64,000 nt of DNA from Dehalococcoidia bacterium (GTDB lineage Bacteria; Chloroflexota; Dehalococcoidia; Lucifugimonadales; UBA1123), in the NCBI GenBank assembly GCA_965217725.1, contig OZ244564.1, forward strand, positions 2,691,371-2,755,370, in the 5' to 3' direction. Of the stretch, positions 2,410 through 55,665 are shown one piece after another (within the stretch, counting starts at the first letter, position 1; every line of letters starts with the position of its first letter). The translations under genes were made by a program, and so were the position numbers. The notes beneath the pieces were generated by a model. It made no database searches, was not told the origin of the DNA, and saw nothing but the letters and a program-made list of their open reading frames with translations.

Positions 2410-2520
2410 GACTCTATCGTGCCAAAATCGATTCGATTCCGCAAGTCCGACACTGTTGACTACGATCCATATCGGCTATAGGATTCTTTGGCTAATCAAG
2501 CTGCCAGGGGAGTTGGTCAC

Positions 2521-3750
2521 ATGCGTAAACACGCGCTTGAGGGGGTACGGGTCGTCGATTTCTCTTGGATCGTGGCAGGCCCGACGTGCACACGAATCCT
2601 CGCGGACTTCGGCGCGGAAGTCATCCGAGTCGAGAACGAACAGACGATGGACTACACTCGGAACTCGATGGCGCCGCCGGGTGCAAACAGCCCAAACATG
2701 GGCGGCATGTTCAATAACCTGAATCGCAACAAGCTGGGAGTCACGATCAACGTGATGCACCCCAGCGGCATGGAACTGCTCCACGATCTCATCGCCGTCT
2801 CGGACATCGTCGTCGAGAACTTCAGCGCGACCGTCCTCAAACGGTGGGGTCTCGACTACGAGGCGCAGCGCAAGTTACGACCCGATATCATCTACGTGAG
2901 CATGTCCGGTTTCGGGCATACGGGTCGTGACAACAGATACGTTACCTGGGGACCTACCGCGCAGGCGCTTTCGGGCCTCACGTACATGTCCGGTCTCCCC
3001 GGAGAGGACCCCGCCGGGTGGGGATTCTCCTACATGGACCATACCGGGGGCTTCTACGGGGCGCTGGCGTGCATGAACGCGCTTCACCACCGGAATCGCA
3101 CCGGAGAGGGTCAGTGGGTCGATCTGTCGCAGGTGGAGGTGGGAATGGCGCTTACCGGAACGGCCATTCTGGACAAGACCGTGAACGGACGCGACTTCAG
3201 GCGAGAGGGCAACCCGCCCGGCAACAGGGCCCCGAACTACAAGGTCGCTCCCCACAGCACGTACCGGTGCAAGGGGGAAGACCGCTGGTGTGCCATCACG
3301 GTCTTCGACGACGCAGAGTGGAGCGCGTTCGTGGAAGCGATAGGCGCGCCCGAATGGACATCGGACGAACGGTTCGCCACCAATGAGGGTCGTTACGACA
3401 ACCAGGACAAACTGGACCGACTGATAGAGACTTGGACGATCGAGCGCGAGCCGCACGAGGTGCTTCACACCCTCCAGGCCGCCGGCGTCGCCGCGGGAGC
3501 GGTGCAGACGCCGAAAGAAAAGATCGAGGACGACCCGCAGCTCAGATACCGCGAGTTTCTGCCTGAAGTCGAACACCCGGAGCTGGGCGTGTCCAAGTAC
3601 GAGGGGCAGCCGATGCGTCTCTCCCGGTCTCCCTGGGAGCTCCGGCGCTCTTCGCCGCTCTTCGGCGAACACTCGCAGCACATCTTCGGTGATCTTCTCG
3701 GAGTTCCCGAAGAGGAGATCACAGACCTGATGGTCGAGGGGGCAATCTGA
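2521..3750 (+). CDS. CaiB/BaiF family (class III) CoA-transferase
   Basis: N-terminal GVRVVDFSWIVAGPTCTRILADFGAEVIRVE signature. ATG at 2521 has a GGGGAG SD upstream, whereas the ORF-track TTG at 2488 is less likely. Stop overlaps the next start (TGATG). Confidence 0.9.
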   Translation: MRKHALEGVRVVDFSWIVAGPTCTRILADFGAEVIRVENEQTMDYTRNSMAPPGANSPNMGGMFNNLNRNKLGVTINVMHPSGMELLHDLIAVSDIVVENFSATVLKRWGLDYEAQRKLRPDIIYVSMSGFGHTGRDNRYVTWGPTAQALSGLTYMSGLPGEDPAGWGFSYMDHTGGFYGALACMNALHHRNRTGEGQWVDLSQVEVGMALTGTAILDKTVNGRDFRREGNPPGNRAPNYKVAPHSTYRCKGEDRWCAITVFDDAEWSAFVEAIGAPEWTSDERFATNEGRYDNQDKLDRLIETWTIEREPHEVLHTLQAAGVAAGAVQTPKEKIEDDPQLRYREFLPEVEHPELGVSKYEGQPMRLSRSPWELRRSSPLFGEHSQHIFGDLLGVPEEEITDLMVEGAI

Positions 3751-5003
3751 TGAACGGCAGCCAAGGGGCGCTCTCGGACCTGACCGTCCTCGACCTGTGC
3801 GATGAAAAGGGCCAGTTGATCGGAAAGCTTATGGGAGAGATGGGTGCGCGAGTGGTCAAGGTAGAGCCGCCCGGAGGGGATCCCGCCCGCAACATTCGCC
3901 CTTTCCGAAACGACGTACCTGACCCCAATCAGAGCCTTAACTTCTGGGCATTCAACACAGCCAAGGAAGGCGTCACGCTGGACATAGAACAGCCAACCGG
4001 CCGGGAAGTGCTCAAGAAGCTGGCCGCCAAGGCCGACGTGCTGCTGGAGAGCTTCGATCCGGGCTACATGGACTCCCTGGGACTTGGGTACTCAGACCTG
4101 AGCACGGCGAATCCAGAGCTGATAATGACGTCGCTCACTGGCTTCGGCCAGGATGGCCCGTACCGCGACTACAAGACGTCTGACCTCGTGGCGATGGCGA
4201 TGGGCGGCGTCATGCACAGCTGCGGCTACGACGACCTGCCCAGCGCGCCTCCCATCAGGCCGAGCGGTGGACACGGATACATCATTAGCTGCAACTACGC
4301 CACGCTGGGAACGCTCATGGCCCTAAACTGGCGTGACATGACCGGCGAGGGGCAGCATGTTGACGCCTCCATTCACGAGGCCTGCTCGTGCACCACCGAA
4401 GCCGCGATGCCCACATACATCTACACCAAGGAGCTGGTCAAGCGTCAGACCGGCAGGCACCACGGGGTCCAGCCGACGCCGAAGACGCTCTGCCCGACGG
4501 CTGACGGCAGATACATCAATGTGTTTGCGGTCTTTACAAGCCTCGACCAGTGGCTGGCCCTGGTCAAATGGATGGACGCGGCTGGCATGGCCGAGGACCT
4601 GGTCGATCCCAGGTACCGGGACATGGCGACCATGCGACTGAGGGTCGGCCCAGAAGTCGACCACGCATTCGTAGTCGTGAAGAAGTTCATTGCGGTGCAC
4701 AACGCGGAGGAGATATACCGAGGCGCCCAGGGACGCAAGTTCCCATGGGCGATAGTCCGCTCCCCCGAGGAGACTCTCGAAGACGCTCACTTCGCCGAAG
4801 ATCGAGGCTTCTTCGCGGAGGTGGAACACCCGGACCTGGGCGAGACTTACACCTACGCCGGACGCCCGTACATCATGAACGGCACCCCCTGGCGGACCTT
4901 CAGAAGCCCACTGCTGGGTGAGCACAACGACCGGGTATACGCCGAAGACCTGGGCATGTCGTCGGAGGAAATAGAAAGACTCCGCGCCGACGGGGTGATC
5001 TGA
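3750..5003 (+). CDS. CaiB/BaiF family (class III) CoA-transferase
   Basis: LTVLDLCDEKGQLIGKLMGEMGARVVKVEPPGGDP signature, 417 aa, translationally coupled to the upstream paralogue. Confidence 0.9.
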   Translation: MNGSQGALSDLTVLDLCDEKGQLIGKLMGEMGARVVKVEPPGGDPARNIRPFRNDVPDPNQSLNFWAFNTAKEGVTLDIEQPTGREVLKKLAAKADVLLESFDPGYMDSLGLGYSDLSTANPELIMTSLTGFGQDGPYRDYKTSDLVAMAMGGVMHSCGYDDLPSAPPIRPSGGHGYIISCNYATLGTLMALNWRDMTGEGQHVDASIHEACSCTTEAAMPTYIYTKELVKRQTGRHHGVQPTPKTLCPTADGRYINVFAVFTSLDQWLALVKWMDAAGMAEDLVDPRYRDMATMRLRVGPEVDHAFVVVKKFIAVHNAEEIYRGAQGRKFPWAIVRSPEETLEDAHFAEDRGFFAEVEHPDLGETYTYAGRPYIMNGTPWRTFRSPLLGEHNDRVYAEDLGMSSEEIERLRADGVI

Positions 5004-5825: not shown

Positions 5826-6157
5826 GTTGTCATACTCCCATGTGAGCTATGTGTAATGCGGAGCTTACGCTCCGACTCCAGTGTCGATCGTGGGCTCAAT
5901 CATACTGCAAGAATTGCCGGGAGTCCGACACTGCTCCGATCTCAACCCGCCTCGGATCTGGCTTGCTCACGCAGCCCAGCAGTCGCTCAGGGGCAATGGT
6001 GGTTGGCCCGAACCACACGAGACGCCTTCGCCGTTTTGGATTGCGATCTCGGAGAGATCCTTCTCTACGCTTCCTTCAGGCGTGAGGAGGTAACTTCTGA
6101 AGGGCATGGCGCACAGTCCCCTCCCACACGAGTGTGGACGAAAGAGGCCAGGCCGTG

Positions 6158-6505
6158 TCAGCTCACCAGGTCCGCCATCGCCTTCTTGTCGGTGCCGACG
6201 ATCAGGCCGCCCTCTCCGGTCAGAATCAGCGGCCGCCGGATCAGCCTTGGCTCTTCGACCATAAGCTGGAGCAGTTTATCGTCGCTGAGGTCGTCACGGT
6301 TCAGCCCCATCTTGCGAAAAGACGGCGACCTCCATGAGAAGAAGTCCGAGACGGGCCGGGTTCCTATGATGTCCCGAAGCTCATCTGCGGTGAACGGTTC
6401 GGCGAAGAAGTCGCGCTCGTCGTACTCGATACCAGCCTGTGAAAGCTCCGCTTTCACTCTCCGGCAGGTACTTCAGCGCTTCCAAGTGTAGTACGTGGCA
6501 GGCAT
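6158..6505 (-). CDS. ArsC/Spx/YffB-family thioredoxin-fold protein with in-frame TGA (candidate selenocysteine) at the CxxC position
   Basis: ORF track gives 6158..6457 only. The frame extends through TGA (6475..6473) to ATG 6505..6503, which has a GAGGTGG SD upstream. The conceptual N-terminus MPATYYTWKR-U-STCRRVKAELSQAGIEYDERDF matches the family N-terminus. PRLIRRPLIL matches the conserved C-terminal motif. Confidence 0.6.
6431..6469 (-). promoter_or_regulatory. SECIS-like stem-loop directly downstream of the in-frame UGA
   Basis: Perfect 8-bp upper stem GUGAAAGC/GCUUUCAC (6457..6450 and 6446..6439) with GGA loop. Lower stem ACCUGCC/GGCUGGU has one U-U mismatch. The structure starts 3 nt after the UGA. 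Confidence 0.5.
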
Positions 6506-6580
6506 AGGCAATTCCACCTCACATAATGGGGATTACCCGATCAGCTTATCCGCATCTGGGCAGGAGTTCCAGAAGAATTA

Positions 6581-9066: not shown

Positions 9067-9540
9067 CTACCTCGACCACCGCATGGGAGGCCCATCGTGG
9101 TCGGGGCTGAATGGGATGAGGGCCAGGTGCCTGGCGCGCTTGATGGCAGTCGCCAGGGCGCGCTGGTGCTTGGAGCAGACTCCGGTCTTGCGCCGGGACT
9201 CGATCTTCCAGCGGTCGGTCATATACCTGCGGAACCGCTCGGTGTCTTTGTAGTCGATGAACTCAATGTGGTCTACGCAGAAGCCGCAGATCTTTCGACG
9301 GCTGTAGTAGCGCGGTCTGCCGCGCCTGCCGCCGAATCGGCCGCCACCACCGCCGCCACCCGGTCGTCCACCGGGTCTACCGCCGCCCGGTCGCCCGCCT
9401 GGTCCCGACCCGCCGGGCCTACCGCCCTGAGGTCCTGACCCACCGGGCCTGCCCCCTGTCGAAGGGCCGCCCGGTCTCGAACCGGGAGGACCGCCTGGCC
9501 TGGGTCCTGTTGATGGTGGTCTGCTGGTCTGTGTCGTCAT
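9067..9540 (-). CDS. rpsR: 30S ribosomal protein S18 with ~85-aa Gly/Pro/Arg-rich N-terminal extension
   Basis: Core YYSRRKICGFCVDHIEFIDYKDTERFRRYMTDRWKIESRRKTGVCSKHQRALATAIKRARHLALIPF. ATG at 9540 with an AAGGTGA SD. No in-frame start exists between it and the core. Confidence 0.9.
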   Translation of the reverse strand: MTTQTSRPPSTGPRPGGPPGSRPGGPSTGGRPGGSGPQGGRPGGSGPGGRPGGGRPGGRPGGGGGGGRFGGRRGRPRYYSRRKICGFCVDHIEFIDYKDTERFRRYMTDRWKIESRRKTGVCSKHQRALATAIKRARHLALIPFSPDHDGPPMRWSR

Positions 9541-9670
9541 ATGCACTCACCTTGTATCTACGTCGTATTGACTCTTGCTGGATTTTGCTGGGCCGACGGG
9601 CGAGGCGGTATTGCCTGGAGCGATTACCTGCTACCCGTCGGGGTGAGCCTATTGGAAATGTTCTAGCTGT

Positions 9671-10111: not shown

Positions 10112-10753
10112 CTATTCGCCGGTCTTGGGTTCGTCCACACTCGCGGACACATCTTCGGAGGCTTCCGATGGTGTCTCGGCCTGTGCCGGAGCGGCTTCTG
10201 CGCTCGCCTCAGCCTGCACCGGAGCGGTCTGTTGCTGGTCAGACTCGGCCTCTGCGCTCGCCTCAGCCTGAACCGGAGCGGCCTCGGCCTGCACAGGGGC
10301 GGTCTCGGCAGCGGCAGCCTCGGACGCTGCGGCCCGCGCGGCAGCCTCAGCCGATCTGCGTGCCTCATCGCGCGCTCTAGCCTCGCGCTCGGCGGTGGCT
10401 CGGCGCTCGGTTTCCTGTCGTGCAGCGTTCTCGCGCTCTGCCTGCTTCTCCATTGCGGCAAGGTCGGACTTATCGAGCCTGAACACCAGGTGCCTGAGCA
10501 CGTCCTGTGACGAGTTCAGCGTGCTGTCCAGATCAACGGCGACCTGCGCGTCCATCTTGCATCTGGCGATGAAGTAGTTACCCTCGATGAACCGCTGGAT
10601 CGGATAGGCAAGCCTCCTGATACCCCAGTTGTCCTGTTGGGAGACACTTCCTCCCCCGTCGGAGATTAGGACTGTTATTCGACTGACAGTCTCAGCGGCT
10701 TCGGCTTCAGTAGCCTCGGGGCTGAGGATCATCACCAATTCGTAATCGCGCAT
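10112..10753 (-). CDS. rpsF: 30S ribosomal protein S6 with ~115-aa Ala/Glu-rich C-terminal extension
   Basis: MRDYELVMILSP...WGIRRLAYPI core. ATG at 10753; the ORF-track start at 10837 is upstream of the conserved N-terminus. Confidence 0.9.
   Translation of the reverse strand: MRDYELVMILSPEATEAEAAETVSRITVLISDGGGSVSQQDNWGIRRLAYPIQRFIEGNYFIARCKMDAQVAVDLDSTLNSSQDVLRHLVFRLDKSDLAAMEKQAERENAARQETERRATAEREARARDEARRSAEAAARAAASEAAAAETAPVQAEAAPVQAEASAEAESDQQQTAPVQAEASAEAAPAQAETPSEASEDVSASVDEPKTGE
10197..10281. repeat. 31-nt direct repeat inside the rpsF tail-coding region
   Basis: 10197..10227 versus 10251..10281 differ at one base. They encode the repeated peptide APVQAEASAEA. Confidence 0.85.
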
Positions 10754-10896
10754 CCGTACCGAAGTCAAACCAAATACTCCTGAAACCTGGGAGGGGATAT
10801 CCAGCGAATTATAGCACGCGGCTTTAACGGGCAACAACGAACCGCGAACGAGGAGAACATGGTTATGAGCAGGTCGCCTGCCGGTCCGCTGGCGGT

Positions 10897-11295
10897 CTAC
10901 AGCTTACGTACGCCTTCCAGGGAAGCCATCCTGCGATCGAGTGTCAGCGTATCCATGCCAGACCGAGCGTAATCGTCGGCTATGAGTCTGTCGAATAGGC
11001 CGGGACCGCCGGGCGCCTCAAGAGCCTTGATGACAGACAGACCGTTGAGAGGCGCCACCAGACCGCTGCGCAGCGCATCGAGCAGAGAGGCTCGAGCGTC
11101 GGCACTCGACACGCCGTAGCGGTGCTGAACGGCGACGTACGCTTCCCCCACAACCTGGTTTGAAGCGAAAATCTCGTCGCCCTGCTCCTCAACCAGGAGC
11201 CTAAGTTCCTCGACACAGCGCGCGAACTCGTCTTCAGGATCCCGGGTGATCAGTCTTACAAGGACCGATGTATCAATCCCGAAGCGCTGGGTCAT
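10897..11295 (-). CDS. PIN-domain toxin (VapC family)
   Basis: FGIDTSVLV N-terminal acidic motif and PIN layout. ATG at 11295 overlaps the antitoxin gene's end. Confidence 0.8.
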   Translation of the reverse strand: MTQRFGIDTSVLVRLITRDPEDEFARCVEELRLLVEEQGDEIFASNQVVGEAYVAVQHRYGVSSADARASLLDALRSGLVAPLNGLSVIKALEAPGGPGLFDRLIADDYARSGMDTLTLDRRMASLEGVRKL

Positions 11296-11515
11296 ACGGC
11301 TCCCTTCGGAAGTCCTGGTTGTCGAACGTGGGATGTTCAAGTGGTATCTTGTCTCTCAGCGTTCCCAGCCGCGAGTAATTGATGCGACGGGGCCGTAGAA
11401 TGAAACCGTCCGGTCCCTCGCTCAGTTCGAGTTGGTCGCCGGGGCCGACGCCCAGTGCGTCCAGCACTCTCGCGGGGAACGTGACCTGACGTTTGGACGT
11501 GATTTTGACAATCAT
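11273..11515 (-). CDS. AbrB/MazE/SpoVT-family antitoxin (VapB-like)
   Basis: MIVKITSKRQVTFPARVLDALGVGPGDQLEL swapped-hairpin motif, immediately upstream of the PIN gene. Confidence 0.8.
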   Translation of the reverse strand: MIVKITSKRQVTFPARVLDALGVGPGDQLELSEGPDGFILRPRRINYSRLGTLRDKIPLEHPTFDNQDFRREPYDPALRD

Positions 11516-22758: not shown

Positions 22759-23808
22759 ATGCGTCTCTACATTGGCAAGAACCACTTAAGAGATACCTTC
22801 CCTGTCCAGAGCATATTTCGCCTGGCGGGCAGTGACGAAGACGCACTCACCTTTGCTCTGGGATTCCTGCTAGCTTATGATCGCTCTTTCTGCACCAAAC
22901 TAATTCGTCGTCTGCGCGTTGCCCGTCGCCTGACCCTCAAACCCGGCTATTCCGTACGTCTGCAAGAAGTTACCGATTCGAGATTCGGTCGCAGAGATAT
23001 CGTCATCGAGGACAGTAGAATGCGTATCGTACTGGAGGCTAAGATTGGGGGTGCCGAACCTACCGCCCAGCAACTCCTCAAGTATGGCACTGAACACAGG
23101 CTGTGGAATCAGTATAAGACACGAGGGGTGGTTGCCCTTACTCAGGTTGAATTGGCGGCAGCGACGAGAAAAAGTGTTGAGGCGAAGCTATCCGAACAAG
23201 GCATACGATTCAGCAATGTGCAGTGGCACGAAGTCGTTGATCTCGCCCTGGGCTACAAGCCTTCCGACGACTCAGAAGTGTCGCGATACCTTCTCGACCA
23301 GTTCATTCGCTACATCAGGAGTGATTACCACATGGGTTACTATGATGCTGAGATTCTCATTCAGGACGTGAATCCCTTCAACGCGAAGATATTTGAAGAA
23401 GGCTGGATGTACGTCGCCAACCTCAAGGACAAAAAGGCTCCTCTGTACTTCTCTCCCTACTTCACTAGCCAATGTACAAACACTGGCATATCAATGGTCA
23501 GCCGTGTGATGGATACCGAAATCGTCGTACTTGCCGAAAAGCAAGATGTTTCTGTAGACACACCGGGCGATGCCCATCTACAAAAATGGCGCAACGGGCT
23601 TGATCTAGTGAAAAATGCATACCCTGAGCACACGGAGGTGCAACTCCTATATTTGGATTGCCCAATAACCCTTTGGAAATCGCCATTGCTCAAGAAGACA
23701 TTTAATGCGATGGGACCGCCCAAGCAGATTCCAAGCCAGATACCCAAAGGTTTTAGTCTGAGATTCGATGAGTTGCTGCCGCCCGGGCTGGAAGGTAGTA
23801 AACCTTAA
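22759..23808 (+). CDS. hypothetical protein: N-terminal RecB-like PD-(D/E)xK nuclease domain plus uncharacterised C-terminal domain
   Basis: EDALTF ... RRDIVIED ... IVLEAK ... QQLLKY gives the E / D / ExK / QxxxY motif series. About 170 aa of the C-terminus have no family I can name. Lies in a visibly lower-GC segment. Confidence 0.6.
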   Translation: MRLYIGKNHLRDTFPVQSIFRLAGSDEDALTFALGFLLAYDRSFCTKLIRRLRVARRLTLKPGYSVRLQEVTDSRFGRRDIVIEDSRMRIVLEAKIGGAEPTAQQLLKYGTEHRLWNQYKTRGVVALTQVELAAATRKSVEAKLSEQGIRFSNVQWHEVVDLALGYKPSDDSEVSRYLLDQFIRYIRSDYHMGYYDAEILIQDVNPFNAKIFEEGWMYVANLKDKKAPLYFSPYFTSQCTNTGISMVSRVMDTEIVVLAEKQDVSVDTPGDAHLQKWRNGLDLVKNAYPEHTEVQLLYLDCPITLWKSPLLKKTFNAMGPPKQIPSQIPKGFSLRFDELLPPGLEGSKP

Positions 23809-29445: not shown

Positions 29446-29847
29446 TTAAGGCGCCTGTTCAGCTTGGACTACTATACCGAGGTCTGGTGCTCGGGCGAGA
29501 CGCATATCGGCTGTCAACAATGGTAGATCATGCGCTCGGGCGGCAGCGACGTAGAGTGCGTCATATGCGCTGACATTGCGATAGTAGTCCCAGGCAAGCC
29601 GAGCCAACTCCCGGTTAGGTATGCGGTGGACTGGCCAGTAAGGCACGTCTTCGACAATCATCACGGCTCGTGATTCCTCTATGTGACCGCGCAACACCCA
29701 ACTACGTAACACGGATAGAATCTCCGCGTCGATCAGTTCTGGAGCCACAAGCGGATCGTCCTCGACGAGATCAGCAACGTGAGTACCCAACGATGATTTG
29801 ACCAGGTATTCGACCGCTGCCGAGGCATCGATTACGTATGCGGTCAA
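29446..29847 (-). CDS. PIN-domain toxin (VapC family)
   Basis: AYVIDASAAVEYL ... DALYVAAA ... LLTAD acidic-residue pattern. 4-nt overlap with the antitoxin. Confidence 0.85.
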   Translation of the reverse strand: MTAYVIDASAAVEYLVKSSLGTHVADLVEDDPLVAPELIDAEILSVLRSWVLRGHIEESRAVMIVEDVPYWPVHRIPNRELARLAWDYYRNVSAYDALYVAAARAHDLPLLTADMRLARAPDLGIVVQAEQAP

Positions 29848-31858: not shown

Positions 31859-33012
31859 ACTGACTCACTGACGTTACGCACATTCTGTGGGAACTGATAC
31901 GCTTGGATCATGAACCAAGAACTGCTCGAACTCGCCGCGGCGAGTGATTATCTTCTCAGCTCCTTTGGAGCGACCACCGCGACTGGGCTGTCCGACATGC
32001 TTGACGGCGTGATCAGCCACGACAGGGTGACCCGCTTTCTCGCAGCGGACGACTATGACTCCAGGACTCTGTGGAAGCAGGTCAAGCCCATGGTCAGAGC
32101 GATACAGCACCCCGACGGTGTGCTCATCTTCGATGACACCATACAGGAAAAGCCCCACACCGACGAGAACGAGATAGTCAGTTGGCACTTCGACCACAGC
32201 AAGGGCCGATCGGTCAAGGGCATCAACATCCTCAGCTGTGTTTACCATGCTCAGGGAGTGAGTCTGCCGGTGGCGTTGGAGATCATCCACAAGCCCATTG
32301 AGTTCAAAGATCACAGCACCGGTCGTCTCAGGCGCAGGAGCGAGGTCACCAAGAACGAGTTGATGCGTCGGATGCTCAGAGTGTGTCGGAACAATGGGCT
32401 GGAGTACCGCTGCGTGCTGGCCGACAGCTGGTTTTCGTCCAGGCAGAACATGGAGTTCATACACGACGAGTTGGGCAAGCAGTTCGTGATCGCACTCAAA
32501 TCCAACAGGACGGTGGCATTGAGCTATGAGGAGAAACTTCAGGGTAGCTTTCATCGGATAGACTCACCACACCTGCCGGAAGGCCAACCCCGGCCTCCGC
32601 CGGGGCAGGCTCTGTGCTCGGCTGGCTGAGAGGACTGGACTTTCCAGTACTGCTGATGCGTCAGGTCTTCACGAACGGAGACGGCAGCACAGGGACGCTG
32701 TATCTGGCCTGTAGCGAGCTTGATTCTGAGGGCGAGGCCATAGAAGCAATCTACCACAGAAGGTGGAGAGTGGAGACGTTTCACAAGACGCTCAAGTCCA
32801 ACGCTGCGCTTGGGAGGTCGCCGACGAAGACGGTGCGTACACAGAGCAATCACGTGTTCATGTCCATATACTCGGTCTGTCGTCTGGAGTGGCTCAGCGT
32901 GAGACATCAGATCAATCACTTCGCGCTCAGAACCCGGATATATCTCAAGGCCATTCGTCACGCCTTCGATGAACTACAACTCCCTAAGACTGCGTAACGT
33001 CAGTTAGTCAGT
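31859..33012 (+). mobile_element. IS701-like insertion sequence (1154 bp), transposase frameshifted
   Basis: 22-bp terminal IRs ACTGACTCACTGACGTTACGCA (31859..31880) and its reverse complement at 32991..33012 with 1 mismatch. No obvious TSD. Confidence 0.75.
31910..32997 (+). pseudogene. DDE transposase (IS701/IS4 superfamily) split into two frames at about 32600
   Basis: ORFs 31910..32629 and 32614..32997 are consecutive parts of one transposase. IFDDT and LADSWF are DDE-region motifs, and YHRRWRVETFHKTLK is the Y-x2-R-x3-E-x6-K signature. The frame switch sits at the GC hairpin CCCCGGCCTCCGCCGGGG. Confidence 0.7.
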
Positions 33013-33683: not shown

Positions 33684-34490
33684 ATGAGTACCCATAACAC
33701 ATCGGCCAGCAGGCTGAGCGGCAAGGTCGCCATAGTGAGCGGCGCGGGAACCTACGGCGGGGCCGGAGTTGGCAACGGCGCGGCTGCCGCCATCCTTTTC
33801 GCCCGCGAAGGCGCGCGCGTCGTGCTGGTCGACGCAGTCCGCGAGTGGGCCGACGCGACCAGGGAGATCATTGAGGAAGAGGGCGGCGAGGCCATGACCG
33901 CTACCGCCAACGTGACCGAGTCTGAAGAGTGCAGGCGTGTTGTCGATGCGGCTGTGGACCGCTTCGGCAGGCTCGACATCCTGCACAACAACGTCGGCGG
34001 CGGAGGTGGGTCGGGCAGCGTAGTGGACACCACCGACGAAGACTGGGCAAACAGCATGTCAGTTAACGTCATGAGCATGATTAACATGAGCCGCTACGCG
34101 GTGCCCCAGATGGGAACCAGCGGCGGCGGCTCGATAATCAACGTCTCGTCAGTAACGGCATTGAGACCCAAGACGATGAGGTCGTCAGCCCCGTACACGG
34201 TCAACAAGTCGGCGGTAGTCGGCCTGACCAGGGCGATGGCAGTCGATCACGCCACCGACAACATCAGGGTCAACTGCATCATGCCCGGCCTGATGTGGAC
34301 TCCCAGGCTGGAGAGTAGCACGCCAGACGCACGCGAAATGCGCCAGACCTCCACGCCCCTGCCCGTCGAGGGACAGGGCTGGGACATCGGCTGGGCGGCG
34401 CTATATCTGGCCAGCGACGAGGCTCGGTTCGTAACCGGCATAACCCTCCCCGTAGACGGAGGCTTCCTGCTCACCAGCGCCCCAAACTAG
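33684..34490 (+). CDS. SDR family oxidoreductase
   Basis: GKVAIVSGAG Rossmann motif, HNNVG (NNAG-equivalent motif), YTVNK (YxxxK). Confidence 0.9.
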   Translation: MSTHNTSASRLSGKVAIVSGAGTYGGAGVGNGAAAAILFAREGARVVLVDAVREWADATREIIEEEGGEAMTATANVTESEECRRVVDAAVDRFGRLDILHNNVGGGGGSGSVVDTTDEDWANSMSVNVMSMINMSRYAVPQMGTSGGGSIINVSSVTALRPKTMRSSAPYTVNKSAVVGLTRAMAVDHATDNIRVNCIMPGLMWTPRLESSTPDAREMRQTSTPLPVEGQGWDIGWAALYLASDEARFVTGITLPVDGGFLLTSAPN

Positions 34491-34514
34491 ACGAATGGCC
34501 CCCTCTCCCTCAGG

Positions 34515-35838
34515 GCTGACAGGGGTAGGCAAAGTGTGAGACAGGTATGAGAACTTGGCAAGCGCACGGGGATCTGGCATCTTTTTGGTATCAGACAGAA
34601 AGGCTGCCAGAGACTCCCATGCGCTTGCCAACCGAATACTATCAGATGAAGCAGACCACCAAACACTACATGCCTCACCTCAGAGAGTCTCAGTTGAAAG
34701 GACTGGTTCTGTGGGTGTTCGGCTCCATACTCGCCAGGAGCGGATGTCAGAACGCCGTCGCCACAGAGCTTTCGTTCATGGGTAGTTTCAACAGCATCCG
34801 ACAGTATCTCAGAGAGTGGCTGTACGATGGACAGGACCGCTCCAACCCATGTCGAGTGCAGTTGGATGTCAGACTGAGCTTCGTTCCGCTGTTGAAGTGG
34901 TTGCTGGAGCTTTGGGAGTCGGACAGGCTGGTGCTGGCCACAGACCCCACGATGAAGGGAGATCGGATAAACGCCATCGTAATAAGCGTGGTCTATCGAA
35001 GCTGCGCGATTCCGGTCGCCTGGCGCATTCTGCCCGCCAACACGCCTGGCAGGTGGATGGAGTCGATAGTGGACATGCTCGGGATGCTGTCCGAAGCGAT
35101 GCCGAAGCACATGACGGTGTTGGTGATGTGCGACAGGGGACTGAGAAGCCCCAGACTGTGGGATCGGATACGTTGTGCGGGATGGCATCCATATGTACGG
35201 CAGTCGATCAACACTGTGTTCTGTCCTGACGGAGGAACCCGTCTGCCGGCACGATACCTCGTTGCTGGACCCGGACACGCATATGTTGGGTTCGGGACGG
35301 CTTTCAGCAGACCGAGCATACGCCGACGCGCAACGATGATCGTGGTATGGGACAGAGGTCAGGAAGAGCCATGGGTGGTGATGACCGATCTTGCGCCCAT
35401 CGAAGCGGGAGTGTGCTGGTACATGCTTCGTTTCTGGATAGAATTGGGCTTCAGGATGCTCAAGAGCTTTGGGTGGCAGTGGCAGAACACTCGCAGGACC
35501 GATCCCGAACGGGTGTCGAGACACTGGTTGGCGATGTCGGTGGCAACGCTGTGGACGCTGGCGTATGGCACCAGAGTGGAAGACGCCAACGACCTGGGTA
35601 TAGCCCCCGGTCGTCTGAGATCGCCTCCGAAACTGCTTGCGCCGACTCATCGCAGCGCACCCAGACGAATCGTAAGCGTGCTTCGACTTGGTGCGAGTTG
35701 TCTGAGACGGCTGCTGCACAGGGGCAGACTCTGGCGCAGAGTCTGGTTGCTTCCCGAACCGTGACCCAAACCACCGCCCGACATGAAGCTCACTTACCAT
35801 GCCGATACCTGAAACAATCAATGCCTACCCCTGTCAGC
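34515..35838 (+). mobile_element. intact IS4/IS701-like insertion sequence (1324 bp) with 9-bp target duplication
   Basis: Perfect 17-bp IRs GCTGACAGGGGTAGGCA (34515..34531) and TGCCTACCCCTGTCAGC (35822..35838). Flanking direct repeat TCCCTCAGG at 34506..34514 and 35839..35847. Confidence 0.85.
34547..35764 (+). CDS. DDE transposase (IS4/IS701-like)
   Basis: 405-aa uninterrupted ORF: LATDPT, LVMCDRG, and the YMLRFWIELGFRMLK (Y-x2-R-x3-E-x6-K) signature. Confidence 0.85.
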   Translation: MRTWQAHGDLASFWYQTERLPETPMRLPTEYYQMKQTTKHYMPHLRESQLKGLVLWVFGSILARSGCQNAVATELSFMGSFNSIRQYLREWLYDGQDRSNPCRVQLDVRLSFVPLLKWLLELWESDRLVLATDPTMKGDRINAIVISVVYRSCAIPVAWRILPANTPGRWMESIVDMLGMLSEAMPKHMTVLVMCDRGLRSPRLWDRIRCAGWHPYVRQSINTVFCPDGGTRLPARYLVAGPGHAYVGFGTAFSRPSIRRRATMIVVWDRGQEEPWVVMTDLAPIEAGVCWYMLRFWIELGFRMLKSFGWQWQNTRRTDPERVSRHWLAMSVATLWTLAYGTRVEDANDLGIAPGRLRSPPKLLAPTHRSAPRRIVSVLRLGASCLRRLLHRGRLWRRVWLLPEP

Positions 35839-39665: not shown

Positions 39666-42095
39666 ATGACACAGGTACTTGACAGCATGACCGTGCTGGA
39701 CTTCAGCCAGGGCATGGCGGGCTCCGTCGCGACTATGGTGATGTCCGACTTCGGCGCCGATGTCATCAAGGTGGAGCCGCCCGGAGGAGACCCCTATCGG
39801 ACACATCCCGCCTCGCTCCTGTGGAATCGAGGCAAGAAGAGTGTCGTACTGGACCTCGAGACCGCCGAAGGCCGCAAACACGCCAAAGACCTCGCGCGTT
39901 TCGCAGATGCAGTGGTAGAGAGTTTCGTTCCCGGAGACGCCGCTGCGCTCGGAGTAGACTATGAGACCCTGAAGTCCGAAAATCCCGGCCTCGTTTACAC
40001 CTCGATTACAGCGTTTGGCGACTCCGGCCCCTATGCCCGGTACAAGCCATACGAGGCGCTCGTAAGCGCAAAGTGCGGACGGTACATGGCGTTCGCCGGA
40101 CAGAACGGACGGGAAGGACCCAACTACGGCGCGGTGCAGGTCGCGAGCCACGGCGCGGCAATGGCCGCGGTCCGGGGCGCTGTGGCCGCTCTCATGATCC
40201 GTGACCGAACGGGTGTCGGCCAGCACGTTCAGACCAGCCTGCTCCGAGCGATAACCTACTATGACCTCAGCCAGTTCCTCGTCTGGCAGATGATGATCAA
40301 GTTCCCCGAAAACTTTCCCGACGACCTCACCGTGGTCGCATCGAGGCCCGCGCCGATCCAGTACCTGGCGGTGCGTGCCGGCGACGGACGCTGGCTGCAG
40401 CTCGCCAACCTGATGGAGAGGCTCTTCATCTCTGAGATTCACGCGATCGGACTCGGCCACCTGCTTGAAGACCCGCGCTACGCCTCGGCGCCGTTCCTCG
40501 ATGACCAACCCCGTGAGGAGATGCGCGAGTTCATACTGGACAAGATGCAGGAGAAGTCCATCGACGAGTGGATGGACCTCTTCATCGATGTTGAGGGCGA
40601 TGTCGCCGCCGAGCCGTTCATGACCTCCATAGAGGCGCTGGATCATCCGCAGATGGTCCACAACGGCTCTGTCCAGACGGTCGATGACCCGACGGTCGGG
40701 CCGATGCGCCAACTGGGGCCGCTGTTCCGCATGGACGCTTCCCAGGCCAGCGTGCGAGGCCCGGCACCACAGATCGGGCAGCACACCGAAGAGGTGTTGG
40801 CGCGTCTCGGTGACGCTCCCGCCCACTCTGCGAATGGCAATGGCGCGACTCCCACCCATCCGCTAGAAGGCGTAACCGTTCTGGACATGTCCACGGTCAT
40901 TGCCGGCCCGCTCGCAGGGTCGCTGCTCGCCGAGCTCGGCGCGCGTGTCGTTCGTATAGAGACCCTTGCCGGAGACTGGATGCGCGGCCACTACAACGGT
41001 CTGGCGTCGAACCGGACGATGGCTGGCACCGAGGGCCTGTCCATCGACCTCAAGACACGTGAAGGCCAGGACATTCTTGGCCGCCTGCTTCCTGATGTGG
41101 ACGTCGTGCTGCACAACATGCGACCAGGGGCCCCTGAGAGGGTGGGCATCGGCATCGAGCAGGTCAGGGCGCTCAATCCCGACGCCATCTACGCCTATCT
41201 GGGTGGATACGGCTCGACAGGCCCGCACAGTCACCGGCCGGCCATGCACCCGATCGGCGGTGCGGTCGGAGGCGGCGTCATGGCCCAGATCAGTCGCGGC
41301 GCGTTGCCTCCGGACAACGCCGGCATGAGCATGGACGAACTCCGTTCCGTCTCCCGGCAGCTGGGTCGCGCAAACGAGGTCAACCCTGACCCCAACACCG
41401 CAATGGTTACGGCGACTGCGATCACCATGGCCTTGTACGCACGCCAGAGACACGGCGACAAGCAGTACGTAGAGACCACTATGATAGGCTCCAACGCCTA
41501 CGTAAACGCGGACGACTTCTTCGACTACGAGGACAGGCCCGCAAGGCCCGTGATAGACGCCGACGGATACGGCACCGGCGCGCTGTTCAGACTGTACTCG
41601 ACACCCGACGGTTGGGTGTTCCTGGCGTGCCCGTTTGAAGACGAGTGGCCGCGGCTGTGCAGCGCGCTCAGTCGTCCCGACCTTCTCGAAGACCCCCGGT
41701 TCATCACTGCCGACGCTCGGCAGGATAACGACGGTCCCCTGGCGTCGGAGCTCGGCTCCGTTTTCGCTGAACGTCCCGCGCTGGAGTGGGAGCGTCTACT
41801 GACCGCTGCGGACCTCGGCTGTGTGCAGACCGAGGATCGAGGCATGTACCACTTCTTCGCTGAGGACGAGCACGTGGCCCAGAACGACTTGACCGTCGAG
41901 GTGAGCCACCCGACCTACGGCGAGTTCTGGCGTTACGCGCCCATACTCGAGTTTTCGAAGACCCCCAGTGTCGCCGGAGGCGGCATAGTGCGCGGTCAGC
42001 ACACCTTCCCGATTCTCAGAGAGCTGGGCTACAGCGATGACCAGATCATCCAGATGAGGGACAATCGAGTCCTCGACTGGGAGGAGCCTGCATAG
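39666..42095 (+). CDS. tandem-fused double CaiB/BaiF (class III) CoA-transferase
   Basis: Two complete modules. Module 1 starts MTVLDFSQGMAGSVATMVMSDFGADVIKVEPPGGDP. Module 2 starts GVTVLDMSTVIAGPLAGSLLAELGARVVRIE after the linker DAPAHSANGNGATPTHP. Confidence 0.9.
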   Translation: MTQVLDSMTVLDFSQGMAGSVATMVMSDFGADVIKVEPPGGDPYRTHPASLLWNRGKKSVVLDLETAEGRKHAKDLARFADAVVESFVPGDAAALGVDYETLKSENPGLVYTSITAFGDSGPYARYKPYEALVSAKCGRYMAFAGQNGREGPNYGAVQVASHGAAMAAVRGAVAALMIRDRTGVGQHVQTSLLRAITYYDLSQFLVWQMMIKFPENFPDDLTVVASRPAPIQYLAVRAGDGRWLQLANLMERLFISEIHAIGLGHLLEDPRYASAPFLDDQPREEMREFILDKMQEKSIDEWMDLFIDVEGDVAAEPFMTSIEALDHPQMVHNGSVQTVDDPTVGPMRQLGPLFRMDASQASVRGPAPQIGQHTEEVLARLGDAPAHSANGNGATPTHPLEGVTVLDMSTVIAGPLAGSLLAELGARVVRIETLAGDWMRGHYNGLASNRTMAGTEGLSIDLKTREGQDILGRLLPDVDVVLHNMRPGAPERVGIGIEQVRALNPDAIYAYLGGYGSTGPHSHRPAMHPIGGAVGGGVMAQISRGALPPDNAGMSMDELRSVSRQLGRANEVNPDPNTAMVTATAITMALYARQRHGDKQYVETTMIGSNAYVNADDFFDYEDRPARPVIDADGYGTGALFRLYSTPDGWVFLACPFEDEWPRLCSALSRPDLLEDPRFITADARQDNDGPLASELGSVFAERPALEWERLLTAADLGCVQTEDRGMYHFFAEDEHVAQNDLTVEVSHPTYGEFWRYAPILEFSKTPSVAGGGIVRGQHTFPILRELGYSDDQIIQMRDNRVLDWEEPA

Positions 42096-52422: not shown

Positions 52423-55400
52423 CTAGAGTGCGTCCGAATACTCTTTCGTTGAGTGTGTAGAGTCTGCTGGCTCGCTGTTCGATTGCGACCATGCCAGCAT
52501 CGCCAGTTCGTCCCTGTCACGGTCGCCGAACACTACTAGCTTGTCGCCTTCCCAATAGGCCATCCCGTCCACGACCTCCATCGTCTTGACGCTGACCGTA
52601 CAGACTCGCTTGAGCAGATCAATTACATGCTCCTTGTGATCAGCGAAGCGGTACGTGTTGAACTTCTCCCTGATGGTGGGGTCCCGCGGCTTCTTCTCCT
52701 TGTACTGGTCTAGTACCCATTCGAGGGCGGAACGACTGCCGAGCACGTAGCGCCATGCGTCAGACGGCACGCCGGAGAGGGACGTCTGCTCATCGAGTGC
52801 GATGATGCCGCGCCCCTTGTCGGCCCGAAGGCGAGCCTTCGGAGTCCATTCGGCGTCAGAACCGGACCGAGATTTAGGCTTGTCGTGACGTTCAAGCGGG
52901 TAGGGTTCAGCCGACTCGAAGTTGATGTGCAGGTCCAGAAGCTCCCGACCCATCTTCGCCCAGAGGTCGAAGTCGTGGTACAGCGGTAGACGGGGGAACT
53001 CGCGCAGAAGATCGACTCGGTAGTCGTAGCGGTACACTGGATCGTGGAGCACCGCGTAGGTGTAGGCGAAGATTTCTTCAGCCGAGATGCCGTCCGGGTA
53101 GATTTCCTGGAAGTCCTTGCCCCAGTCTTTGTGGTAGTGATCGTTGATGTGCCGGATGGCCCAGTCGGTAATGTTGCAGACTCGCTCGCCATCGTCCGTA
53201 TAGCGGTACAAGGGGAGGCATTGGGTGCCGTCGAAAAACAAGTGGAGGTCGGATATCTTGTCGGTTGCTAAGGCCGCAAAGGGTCTGCGTGCACCCGTGG
53301 CTTGAAAACAGATAACCTTGTTCTTGTGGGCCGCGTTGTCATGCGGGAACAGCTGCGGCATCTGATACTGCATTTCGTTGAGATTCTGATTGTAGTAGAG
53401 GAGTTTGGCTGTGAATGGACGATATGTGGCCATGCGAATGGCAGACTCACGTACGACGTTTGGGAGGTTGAGCCGTAGTTGGCGTTTGAGATCGCGGGTC
53501 CACTTGATTGCAATTCCCAAGGCGCCATCACTAACACTTTGACCACCATGCTGCCTGCGGGCTTGTTCGTATCTGTCAACCATCCACGTAACCTTGCTAT
53601 GGAGATGGTGACTGTCGAAGTCATACACCCAGCCGTCGCGGTTGGTAACGACACCTAGTGAATACAACCTGAACACGGCTTGTTCATCTTCAATGGCCTT
53701 AGCCAGCTTGGTCTCTCGATTGGCCAAAGGCACCAACTTCTCGAATTCTGGATTCAACTGATTGAGCCAGTTACCATTCTTGTCAGGCGTAATGTCGTCC
53801 ACGGTAATTTGGTCGAGCTCAGCCTTACGCAGATACGCCAGCTTATCTACAGCTAGTTCTGCATCCTCTCGACGTGCATAATGGATGTCGCACCCACCAA
53901 TCCTGGACTTGTCTCGCACGAAGAAGCCAATGGCTACGCCTGTCTGTATACCGAATACGTTGTGGGTAGTGCCTGACACCTTGGGATTTCGACGGACATC
54001 AGATCCTAAATCCAGAAGGTAGATGTCGCTGAACTCGTTACCAGCCACGTTTCTGAAGCCGTCGTCCTGTTGAGTGTCGATGTACGCCCTGTTGGTGACG
54101 AACGCGATGATCCCACTATCAGCCAGCCGGTCTGACGCCCAACGAATGAACCGTTTGTACATGTCGTACTGCTTGGTCTTCTGGGCAGTGCTGGCGGCGA
54201 TGTAGGTCTCCCGGATGCGCTGGTCGATTTCCGGGTACTCCCGATTCCGGTTGTTATCGTTCTCGTTCTGCTGGTTGGCGTTGTACGGCGGGTTACCGAT
54301 GATGACGCTGATCGTCTTCTCGTTCTGGAGCTGAACGCGCATCCAGTTCTCAGTCGAGAGCCCGCCGAGGTTGAAAGCGCCCTGTCTCGTGACAGCTCCG
54401 CCGGTGGCGCCGGTCTGCTGCCAGTCCATGTTGTCCAGCGTATCGACGAAGCACAGGTTGGGGAACTCCAGGTACTGCCCGGTCTTCTCCCTGTAGGTGT
54501 ACTCTATGTTGAGGTTGGCGATGTAGTAGGGCAGGATAGCGACCTCGTTGGCGTGCATCTCGTTGAGGTACTTGTACTCCAGCCTGTCGGCGGGCAGGTA
54601 GTCGATCAGATTGGTGATGAAGGTGCCCGTACCTGTCGCCGGGTCGAGTATCTGCACGTTCTTATCGGCGAGGCTGCGCCCGAAGTGCTTTTGCAGCAGG
54701 TGGTCGGCGCCGCGGATCATGAAGTCGACGACCTCGTTGGGCGTGTACACCACGCCGAGCCTGTCTGCCGCCGAGGGGTTGTACGCCTTGTAGAAGTCCT
54801 CGTACATCGCCTTGAGGAAGCCCTGCTTCTCAGAGTAGTCGGCGATCTCGTCGGCTGCCCTCCCGATCGCGCCGTAGTACGAGCGCAGCCTGTCGATGGC
54901 CTCACGACGCACGTCACCGGTGAAGAAGGTCTGTTCCAGCGCGTCGAGCCTCTGAGCGATGTCGTTCTCTCGGTGGAACTGGTCCTCGCCGAATACGCGT
55001 AGGAAGATGTCTCGGGTCAGGATGTGCTGCAGCAGCATCTCGCGCACGTCGGCCTCTGACACCTCCGGGCTGATGGACTGCCGGCAAAGCTCAAGGAAAT
55101 CGGCGGCTGCGGCGCGATAGTCGGAGTTGTCGGACTCAGCCGCCTCGATTGCGCCGCGCAGGTTATCGAGCACGGTGGGCAGGTCTTCCTTGAACTGCCG
55201 CTGCGCCTCTCTGAACTCCTCTATCTGCGGGAGCTCGTAGTCGAGGAAGCGTCGGATGAGTCGGTGAAGCTCTTGCGGGCTGCTCATGTCAGCCCGCATC
55301 GTCTCTTCACGATCCTGGATCAGCACCGCGGTATTCGAGTCTTCGAAGATGATGTTGTCGCGCGGGTACCCGCTGTTGAACTTTCTCTGGATCTCAGCGT

Positions 55401-55665
55401 CGAGGTCGTCGTGCGTGTCCTTGGCCTCCCAGTAACCGTGCGCCATCCGCAGCGAGTCCTTTACGGTGCCGTCGGGAACTACGCCGGATGGAGTGCGCAG
55501 CTCCATCACGAGAGCGAACCGCTCTCTGTGGTTGTCGCAGTACGCCTTCAGACAGTTCTGGAACGCGGGGCGAATGCTCAGCTCGTTGTCCGAGCCGCCA
55601 AACTCGATAATCCGAGTTAACTCAGCATGGTACTCATCAAATGTGTTGATAGGAAGGCATAGCAT
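52423..55665 (-). CDS. single-chain Type IIG-like restriction-modification enzyme (PD-(D/E)xK nuclease + N6-adenine methyltransferase + specificity domain)
   Basis: 1080 aa. N-terminal VVPDG...GYWEAKD nuclease-like motif. MTase motif I ILDPATGTGTF and motif IV IIGNPPYN. The C-terminal VYRYDYRVDLLREFPRLPL...LDLHINFE resembles the type ISP/LlaBIII-type C-terminal specificity domain (recollection). No ATPase/helicase module and no separate M/S genes. Confidence 0.75.
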   Translation of the reverse strand: MLCLPINTFDEYHAELTRIIEFGGSDNELSIRPAFQNCLKAYCDNHRERFALVMELRTPSGVVPDGTVKDSLRMAHGYWEAKDTHDDLDAEIQRKFNSGYPRDNIIFEDSNTAVLIQDREETMRADMSSPQELHRLIRRFLDYELPQIEEFREAQRQFKEDLPTVLDNLRGAIEAAESDNSDYRAAAADFLELCRQSISPEVSEADVREMLLQHILTRDIFLRVFGEDQFHRENDIAQRLDALEQTFFTGDVRREAIDRLRSYYGAIGRAADEIADYSEKQGFLKAMYEDFYKAYNPSAADRLGVVYTPNEVVDFMIRGADHLLQKHFGRSLADKNVQILDPATGTGTFITNLIDYLPADRLEYKYLNEMHANEVAILPYYIANLNIEYTYREKTGQYLEFPNLCFVDTLDNMDWQQTGATGGAVTRQGAFNLGGLSTENWMRVQLQNEKTISVIIGNPPYNANQQNENDNNRNREYPEIDQRIRETYIAASTAQKTKQYDMYKRFIRWASDRLADSGIIAFVTNRAYIDTQQDDGFRNVAGNEFSDIYLLDLGSDVRRNPKVSGTTHNVFGIQTGVAIGFFVRDKSRIGGCDIHYARREDAELAVDKLAYLRKAELDQITVDDITPDKNGNWLNQLNPEFEKLVPLANRETKLAKAIEDEQAVFRLYSLGVVTNRDGWVYDFDSHHLHSKVTWMVDRYEQARRQHGGQSVSDGALGIAIKWTRDLKRQLRLNLPNVVRESAIRMATYRPFTAKLLYYNQNLNEMQYQMPQLFPHDNAAHKNKVICFQATGARRPFAALATDKISDLHLFFDGTQCLPLYRYTDDGERVCNITDWAIRHINDHYHKDWGKDFQEIYPDGISAEEIFAYTYAVLHDPVYRYDYRVDLLREFPRLPLYHDFDLWAKMGRELLDLHINFESAEPYPLERHDKPKSRSGSDAEWTPKARLRADKGRGIIALDEQTSLSGVPSDAWRYVLGSRSALEWVLDQYKEKKPRDPTIREKFNTYRFADHKEHVIDLLKRVCTVSVKTMEVVDGMAYWEGDKLVVFGDRDRDELAMLAWSQSNSEPADSTHSTKEYSDAL

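Follow-up and report, generated by a model that had tools for sequence, protein, structure and literature searches.

On the minus strand of a 64,000-nt stretch of DNA from a Dehalococcoidia bacterium (assembly GCA_965217725.1, contig OZ244564.1, positions 2,691,371-2,755,370; hereafter the window) lies a short reading frame that runs from an ATG through a single in-frame TGA, and whose conceptual product is a 115-aa protein of the ArsC/Spx family, MPATYYTWKR-U-STCRRVKAELSQ...DLVS. Comparison of this locus with its relatives suggests strongly that the internal TGA encodes selenocysteine (Sec) and that a hairpin just 3′ of it is a selenocysteine insertion sequence (SECIS) element. The residues directly after the TGA (MPATYYTWKR-[TGA]-STCRRVKAELSQAG...) include a cysteine that, together with the putative Sec, forms the motif U11-x-x-C14. 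The gene had been proposed in an original prediction made from the letters of the window, and the positions given there for the ATG, Shine-Dalgarno motif, TGA, Cys codon, GTG and stop all match the minus-strand reading (Table 1).

Table 1. Features of the candidate selenoprotein locus, in window positions (CDS, coding sequence; ORF, open reading frame; MFE, minimum free energy)
Feature	Position	Strand	Remarks
Full CDS	6505..6158	minus	ATG 6505..6503 to stop TGA 6160..6158; 115 aa, ArsC/Spx-family
Shine-Dalgarno-like GAGGTGG	6520..6514	minus	8 nt 5′ of ATG
Sole in-frame TGA, putative Sec codon	6475..6473	minus	Residue 11; first position of U-x-x-C
TGC, Cys14	6466..6464	minus	Presumed resolving partner of Sec11; aligns with Spx Cys13
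GTG (Val17), gene-caller start	6457..6455	minus	Within 5′ arm of putative SECIS stem; listed ORF 6158..6457
Conserved core of putative SECIS	6457..6439	minus	5′ arm GUGAAAGC 6457..6450; triloop GGA 6449..6447; 3′ arm GCUUUCAC 6446..6439
Lower stem ACCUGCC/GGCUGGU with 5-nt internal loop	6469..6431 (outer limits)	minus	In window MFE fold only

In family searches, for which U was written as C, the conceptual protein matched Pfam PF03960 (ArsC) over residues 6-110 with an E-value of 3e-17 and 63 bits, against a cut-off of 24. Because this score lies above the gathering threshold over the whole domain, the N-terminal beta1-Cys-alpha1 segment included, the protein can be counted as a member of the family. 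The closest solved structures are those of Spx (PDB 1z3e, 3gfk, 6ghb and 7f75; E ~4e-14, residues 4-105), and R773-type ArsC and YffB are much more distant (E-values of 1e-6 to 1e-7). The ArsC/Spx/YffB placement made at the outset thus stands with regard to the family and the beta1-CxxC N-terminus, with the correction that YffB is a more remote relative of the protein than are CxxC proteins of the Spx type. The best NCBIfam model, TIGR01617 (Spx/MgsR and related), gave 72 bits and did not reach its cut-off of 75.05; likewise, the cut-offs of the Spx equivalogs NF002459 (62.7 versus 123 bits) and NF009210 (54.5 versus 159) and of TIGR00014 for ArsC (50.3 versus 106.05) were not reached.

The conservation of the TGA was examined in two samples of loci. 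For the first, DNA was taken from GTDB species-representative genomes holding 80 relatives that share 41-86% identity with the window protein; these are Dehalococcoidia and SAR202 metagenome-assembled genomes (MAGs), many of them closed chromosomes, and about 10 Latescibacterota MAGs. TGA occupies the Sec position in 79 of these 80 genome loci (80 of 81 counting the window), and the sole exception, L074, has the Cys codon TGC. The second sample, independent of the genome set, comprises 80 loci on metagenome contigs, and despite the fact that the query was an 8-sequence alignment of Cys-form relatives, 76 of them have TGA, three have TGC and one has TGT. When both samples are pooled, TGA is found at 155 of the 160 loci, TGC or TGT at five (L074, L081, L082, L127 and L139), and TAA or TAG at none. 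At the protein level, an exhaustive HMMER search of 1.84 billion cluster representatives led to the same position: about 40 of the best 150 matches are full length with an invariant CxxC at positions 11 and 14, and most of the others begin just past this motif. Homologues therefore have at residue 11 what had been expected of them, namely Cys in full-length relatives and TGA in most loci, and the residue matches Cys10 of Spx.

The sequence on both sides of the TGA behaves as coding sequence. In 79 of the 80 genome loci the frame runs on upstream through one stop at the identical position, an upstream start codon lies 10-13 codons before the TGA in nearly all of them, and a Shine-Dalgarno-like purine motif is found 5′ of that start in 76 of 79 orthologous loci. 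The codon-position entropies are 0.85, 0.87 and 1.41 (positions 1, 2 and 3) across the eight codons before the TGA and 0.64, 0.55 and 1.22 downstream of it. Among the orthologues, Tyr(-5) and Trp(-3) relative to the TGA are nearly invariant, and all 74 distinct sequences have Cys at +3 after it. Given that variation falls mainly at third positions and that these Tyr, Trp and Cys residues are conserved, both flanks are under coding constraint in one and the same frame. Furthermore, the codon at the gene-caller start is GTG in 60 of the 80 orthologues and a non-start codon (GCG, ACG, GGA, CTA or GCA) in 19, which argues against homologues that truly begin at the equivalent of 6457.

The RNA 3′ of the UGA folds, in the window sequence, with an MFE of -18.9 kcal/mol into an 8-bp stem capped by a GGA loop and standing on a lower stem with one U-U mismatch. 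The conserved stem begins 15 nt past the UGA; counted from the U of the UGA, the loop G is 26 nt downstream, and 23 nt separate the end of the UGA from the loop, in keeping with the earlier estimate of about 24 nt. In an ungapped 63-column DNA alignment of 80 TGA-bearing sequences, 78 of them distinct, the 8-bp stem is paired in 96.6% of the cells of the distinct sequences, with changes on both sides at six of the eight pairs. Its covariation score is 0.249, as opposed to 0.154 for shuffles (0 of 500 reach 0.249) and 0.06-0.11 for controls with slid partners, and RNAalifold, run independently, predicts exactly the 8-bp stem and nothing else. There are 22 distinct stem sequences and the loop is always G[G/U]N; 77 of the 78 sequences have G as the first loop base, where the third position of a codon falls. 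The lower stem, with 53% of its cells paired across orthologues, is not conserved and is absent from the RNAalifold prediction. Hence, of the SECIS-like stem-loop of roughly 39 nt in the original prediction, the fold is reproduced and the 8-bp upper stem and triloop are conserved, but the lower stem is not.

The stem overlaps the codons for V-K-A-E-L-S-Q, and because the compensating bases lie at synonymous third positions, protein conservation cannot explain it. Specifically, all 51 sequences in which the Leu codon faces Lys AAR use CTT for Leu, 26 of the 27 in which it faces Arg use CTC, and the choice between TCA and TCG for Ser tracks the partner codon, Val GTG or Ala GCG. At one locus (L038) the hairpin is kept even though it is shifted by one base and codes for other residues. 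The hairpin is thus present in TGA-bearing orthologues with the compensatory changes that its conservation would entail. In the five Cys-form loci, only 1-5 of the eight in-register stem pairs form. A sister clade known from metagenome loci (L083-L131, L137 and L147; ‘FYCWSR-U-STCQKARRAL’) also lacks the in-register stem and has a shorter conserved hairpin of its own, GGCCC-GUN-GGGCU, about 17-30 nt past the TGA and 4 nt nearer to it, with the loop G at +22 versus +26. As this hairpin differs in both shape and spacing, the SECIS seems to have been remodelled within the family. As judged from these comparisons, the behaviour of the hairpin is that expected of a bacterial SECIS, an element that is situated directly after the Sec UGA and is bound by SelB (PMC9312934). 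One of the Cys-form loci, L139, has a strong 12-bp hairpin, GCGCUUGCCGC-AAUGC-GCGGCAGGCGC, that starts 3 nt past its TGC (whole-region MFE -31.8 kcal/mol); this could be a fossil or an alternative SECIS-like structure, or a product of chance in G+C-rich DNA.

In public annotation the gene is truncated, as the original prediction had anticipated for standard gene calling. A search of 5.8 billion protein sequences returned 523 relatives, and the best 120 of these clusters (70-100% identical) all cover only 86% of the query, begin at or near ‘(M/V)KAELSQ’, are nearly all 97-105 aa long, and have lost the active site. The few among these 120 that carry a source name are called ‘hypothetical protein’, ‘arsenate reductase-like glutaredoxin family protein’ or ‘Spx/MgsR family transcriptional regulator’. 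In NCBIfam release 20.0, no selenoprotein model reaches its cut-off for this subfamily, and the truncation across public annotation can be traced to this and to the subfamily never having been separated out. Another route to mis-annotation is seen in P0132, a 179-aa sequence of the representative library that extends upstream and has W at the Sec-codon position; it was evidently called with a translation table in which TGA is Trp.

The conserved TGA, the coding flanks, the pairing of Sec with Cys in homologues and the selection on the hairpin at the RNA level together lead us to conclude that the window gene is very probably a genuine Sec-encoding gene with its own SECIS. In the mechanism that we envisage, translation would start at the ATG at 6505, the hairpin 15 nt past the UGA (8-bp stem and G[G/U]N triloop, 6457..6439) would recruit the SelB·GTP·Sec-tRNA(Sec) complex, and Sec would be inserted at the UGA (6475..6473) in place of termination. 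The product would be a 115-aa thioredoxin-like protein of the ArsC/Spx/YffB type, whose U11-x-x-C14 redox centre would match Cys10-x-x-Cys13 of Spx. A U11-C14 selenenylsulfide cycle of this selenol/thiol redox centre is the best-supported mechanism, and by family resemblance the protein may serve as a selenol/thiol-disulfide oxidoreductase or as a redox sensor that works through the reversible selenenylsulfide. The source genome presumably carries selA, selB, selC and selD, in line with support at the level of the Dehalococcoidia lineage: BSepDB, which admits a species only if it has two or more Sec-pathway genes, includes two Dehalococcoidia MAGs, with 49 and 46 selenoprotein genes, among its ten selenoprotein-richest bacteria (PMC13326102).

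It is useful to weigh this interpretation against other ways of reading the same locus. If the 99-aa ORF that starts at GTG 6457 and ends at 6158 were the real gene, the segment from the ATG to the TGA would be a leader peptide or an untranslated leader, and the hairpin would be regulatory or due to chance. This is the model that gene callers adopt for the window and for all of the best 120 clusters, and GTG does stand at the start position in 60 of 80 orthologues; however, the equivalent codon is not a start codon in 19 of the 80, and the product would have lost strand beta1 together with the entire CxxC active site, the part to which Pfam ArsC and Spx align. Moreover, the supposed leader is conserved as protein, in frame and contiguous with the body, and the stop of an upstream ORF need not be TGA in 155 of 155 cases, nor be swapped solely for Cys codons, so that we find this account hardly credible. 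Even less credence, close to none, can be given to a sequencing or assembly error or to an inactivating mutation in a pseudogene whose ancestral codon was TGC or TGT. Although TGA is one substitution away from either Cys codon, the same TGA is shared by 79 species-level genomes that are independent of one another, among them many closed long-read chromosomes, and by 76 contigs from metagenomes, and both flanks are under purifying selection.

It is also conceivable, if very unlikely, that the UGA is decoded but not as Sec, whether by read-through with a near-cognate tRNA for Trp or Cys or under a reassigned code. The W of P0132 at the Sec-codon position and the lack of any visible Sec machinery in the 64-kb window would both fit this. 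Against it, TGA is an ordinary stop here, terminating 18 of the 58 ORF-level genes of the window, which indicates that the code is standard. In addition, the sense codons found at the site are solely those for Cys and never TGG, and the dedicated hairpin with a conserved loop G just 3′ of the UGA is the bacterial signal for Sec and not a general read-through signal. The class Dehalococcoidia also holds documented Sec users. We therefore favour Sec, and not another residue, as the amino acid probably inserted at the UGA.

Several points nonetheless weigh against a Sec-encoding gene and need to be kept in view. The evidence consists of nucleic-acid data and sequence comparison, and the biochemical function suggested for the protein follows from family membership. 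Taken by itself, the hairpin of the window is not significant (z = -1.55, with 17 of 200 shuffles folding equally well), and because the single-sequence fold is no better than chance, its significance is a matter of comparison among orthologues. That comparison has limits of its own: much of the covariation could go back to a handful of ancestral changes that clades have in common, in which case cell counts overstate the number of independent events, and the Cys-form DNA controls number five. No Rfam family matched the hairpin, either in a scan of the window at gathering thresholds or in a permissive scan of 6380..6540; the scans returned only a chance miRNA match on the opposite strand. Finally, Pfam annotation of all 58 ORF-level genes revealed no SelA, SelB or SelD in the 64-kb window, and ARAGORN found no tRNA there, hence no tRNA-Sec.

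The surroundings of the candidate selenoprotein gene are conserved locally and say little about its role. It lies 75 nt downstream of a gene for homoserine dehydrogenase and upstream of one for a short-chain dehydrogenase (SDR), and the order S18, peptidyl-prolyl isomerase, homoserine dehydrogenase, selenoprotein gene, SDR is kept in about 30-35 Dehalococcoidia loci. In Latescibacterota and distant clades the gene keeps none of these neighbours, and other clades have MutS, a CCA-adding/poly(A) polymerase family enzyme, OGG or a dehydratase beside it. Because of this the neighbourhood offers no functional clue; genes of an ars operon are found near the selenoprotein gene neither in the window nor in the other clades. 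A 211-aa ORF on the plus strand (5856..6491), antisense to the gene and to part of the intergenic region, was considered as a real gene and set aside, as it has no Pfam match whereas the minus strand matches strongly; it is probably spurious, arising from the 60% G+C content, although a length-based gene caller might choose it over the real gene. A scan for N- or C-terminal TGA extensions of every window gene gave no other selenoprotein candidate with a redox motif outside the coding regions of other genes.

Elsewhere in the window, two ribosomal protein ORFs on the minus strand are of unusual length, S18 at 9067..9546 (159 aa, domain at 94-144) and S6 at 10112..10837 (241 aa, domain at 32-120), which reflects either over-extension of start codons in the ORF-level calls or real terminal extensions. 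The minus strand also encodes PIN-domain proteins resembling VapC-type toxins (10897..11340 and 29446..29847) and a 1080-aa protein with Type ISP restriction-modification domains (52423..55665; coupler, N6 methylase and C-terminal specificity), for which the helicase/nuclease N-terminal part typical of Type ISP is not among the Pfam hits. Two overlapping plus-strand ORFs, 31910..32629 and 32614..32997, have DDE_5 and then DDE_Tnp_1 transposase domains and look like a single transposase split by a frameshift, programmed or inactivating. On the plus strand there are an 809-aa family III CoA-transferase with two tandem CoA_transf_3 domains (39666..42095) and further family III CoA-transferases at 2488..3750 and 3750..5003; several acyl-CoA dehydrogenases, an enoyl-CoA hydratase and a thiolase-like protein are also present in the window, a gene content that is typical of SAR202-type Dehalococcoidia. 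Two ORFs, 34487..35821 (minus, 444 aa) and 22759..23808 (plus, 349 aa), match no Pfam family at E <= 1e-4.

The finding leaves the current understanding of selenoproteins unchanged, and its usefulness lies in more specific directions. The truncated entries would be corrected by a dedicated model based on the full-length conceptual translations. With TGA and Cys codons in a ratio of 155:5 among the loci examined, across at least two phyla, the family also lends itself to the question of why Sec is favoured in some redox proteins, and its short and regular putative SECIS (8-bp stem, G[G/U]N triloop and fixed spacing) would be a clean substrate for the study of SelB recognition beyond Proteobacteria and Firmicutes.

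The closest solved structure is that of Spx, which in Bacillus and other Firmicutes is a regulator that senses redox state and binds RNA polymerase. When the two proteins are aligned, U11 and C14 coincide with the Cys10-x-x-Cys13 redox switch; both also have the RSxxF and RRP motifs. In Spx, Gly52 contacts the C-terminal domain of the RNA polymerase alpha subunit, and a C-terminal tail of about 16 residues is likewise specific to Spx. The window protein, by contrast, comes from a Chloroflexota host, has Sec in place of the first Cys, and ends at residue 115, which corresponds to about residue 115 of the 131 in Spx and leaves it without the Spx tail; in the HMMER alignment, which is modestly reliable at this point, Gly52 faces a gap. 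One can imagine that the protein is a functional counterpart of Spx outside Firmicutes, that is, an RNA-polymerase-binding redox regulator with a U11-C14 selenenylsulfide switch. This idea draws on Spx being the closest structure, on TIGR01617 being missed by 3 bits, on a gene that seems to stand alone, without a partner common to the clades, and on the great excess of Sec over Cys in the sampled loci; it is weakened by the absence of the Spx-specific Gly52 and C-terminal tail, and on balance we think it improbable. Were it true, the protein would be, to our knowledge, the first Sec-dependent transcription regulator, and the oxidative-stress regulon of the selenoprotein-rich Dehalococcoidia, SAR202 and Latescibacterota would be tied to selenium supply. 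The glutaredoxin-coupled ArsC of the R773/E. coli type (PDB 1i9d and 1jzw) shares the Pfam family, and its nucleophilic Cys12 is equivalent to U11, but the match is weak (PDB E about 3e-6), and it has a single catalytic Cys where the window protein has U-x-x-C.

ArsC-like selenoproteins have been in the literature since 2005-2006 (PMC1794560). The Global Ocean Sampling (GOS) study of Zhang and Gladyshev in 2008 listed ‘Arsenate reductase 1 (UxxS)’ and ‘Arsenate reductase 2 (cd03032, UxxC)’ and gave 42 Sec sequences for the second of these (PMC2398784), and reviews of 2022 and 2026 list an ‘Arsenate reductase-like protein, UxxC’ (PMC9312934, PMC13188914) that is now tied to NF041106. Like the window protein, ‘Arsenate reductase 2’ has the ArsC/Spx fold, with UxxC at the N-terminal end of helix 1, and its sources are uncultured marine bacteria. 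The set is mixed, however. Most of its reads are of the NF041106 type (WYYFRGGUTSCTKA...) and are only 20% identical to the window protein, whereas one read, JCVI_READ_1095390070075 (VTFYYWKKUTTCRKV...EEPRLIRRPLI), is 43% identical to it across 92 residues without a gap (E 4e-31) and shares both the position of the U and the pattern of NCBIfam hits. The statement in the original prediction that ArsC-like selenoproteins had been reported from marine metagenomes is thus borne out by a set that includes a Sec-containing member of this very subfamily. NF041106, ‘ArsC family (seleno)protein’, is likewise a function-unassigned, UxxC selenoprotein of the ArsC superfamily found by bioinformatics. The window protein scores 24.1 bits against this model and does not reach its cut-off of 85, as opposed to 116 bits for the dominant GOS type, which places its subfamily apart and means that annotation driven by NF041106 will not rescue the gene. 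The Spx-like subfamily is therefore one that was sampled and counted as a selenoprotein in the 2008 GOS data and never separated out or described.

A similar mixture of likeness and difference is seen in the hairpin when it is set beside known bacterial SECIS elements, as represented by E. coli fdhF and the bSECISearch model (Zhang and Gladyshev, 2005). In common with these, the family has a stem-loop within the coding sequence just 3′ of the UGA, and its apical loop is small and contains a conserved G. Where the putative element of the window family departs from the fdhF and bSECISearch model is in its strict 3-nt triloop on an unbroken 8-bp stem, without a conserved bulged U or lower stem.

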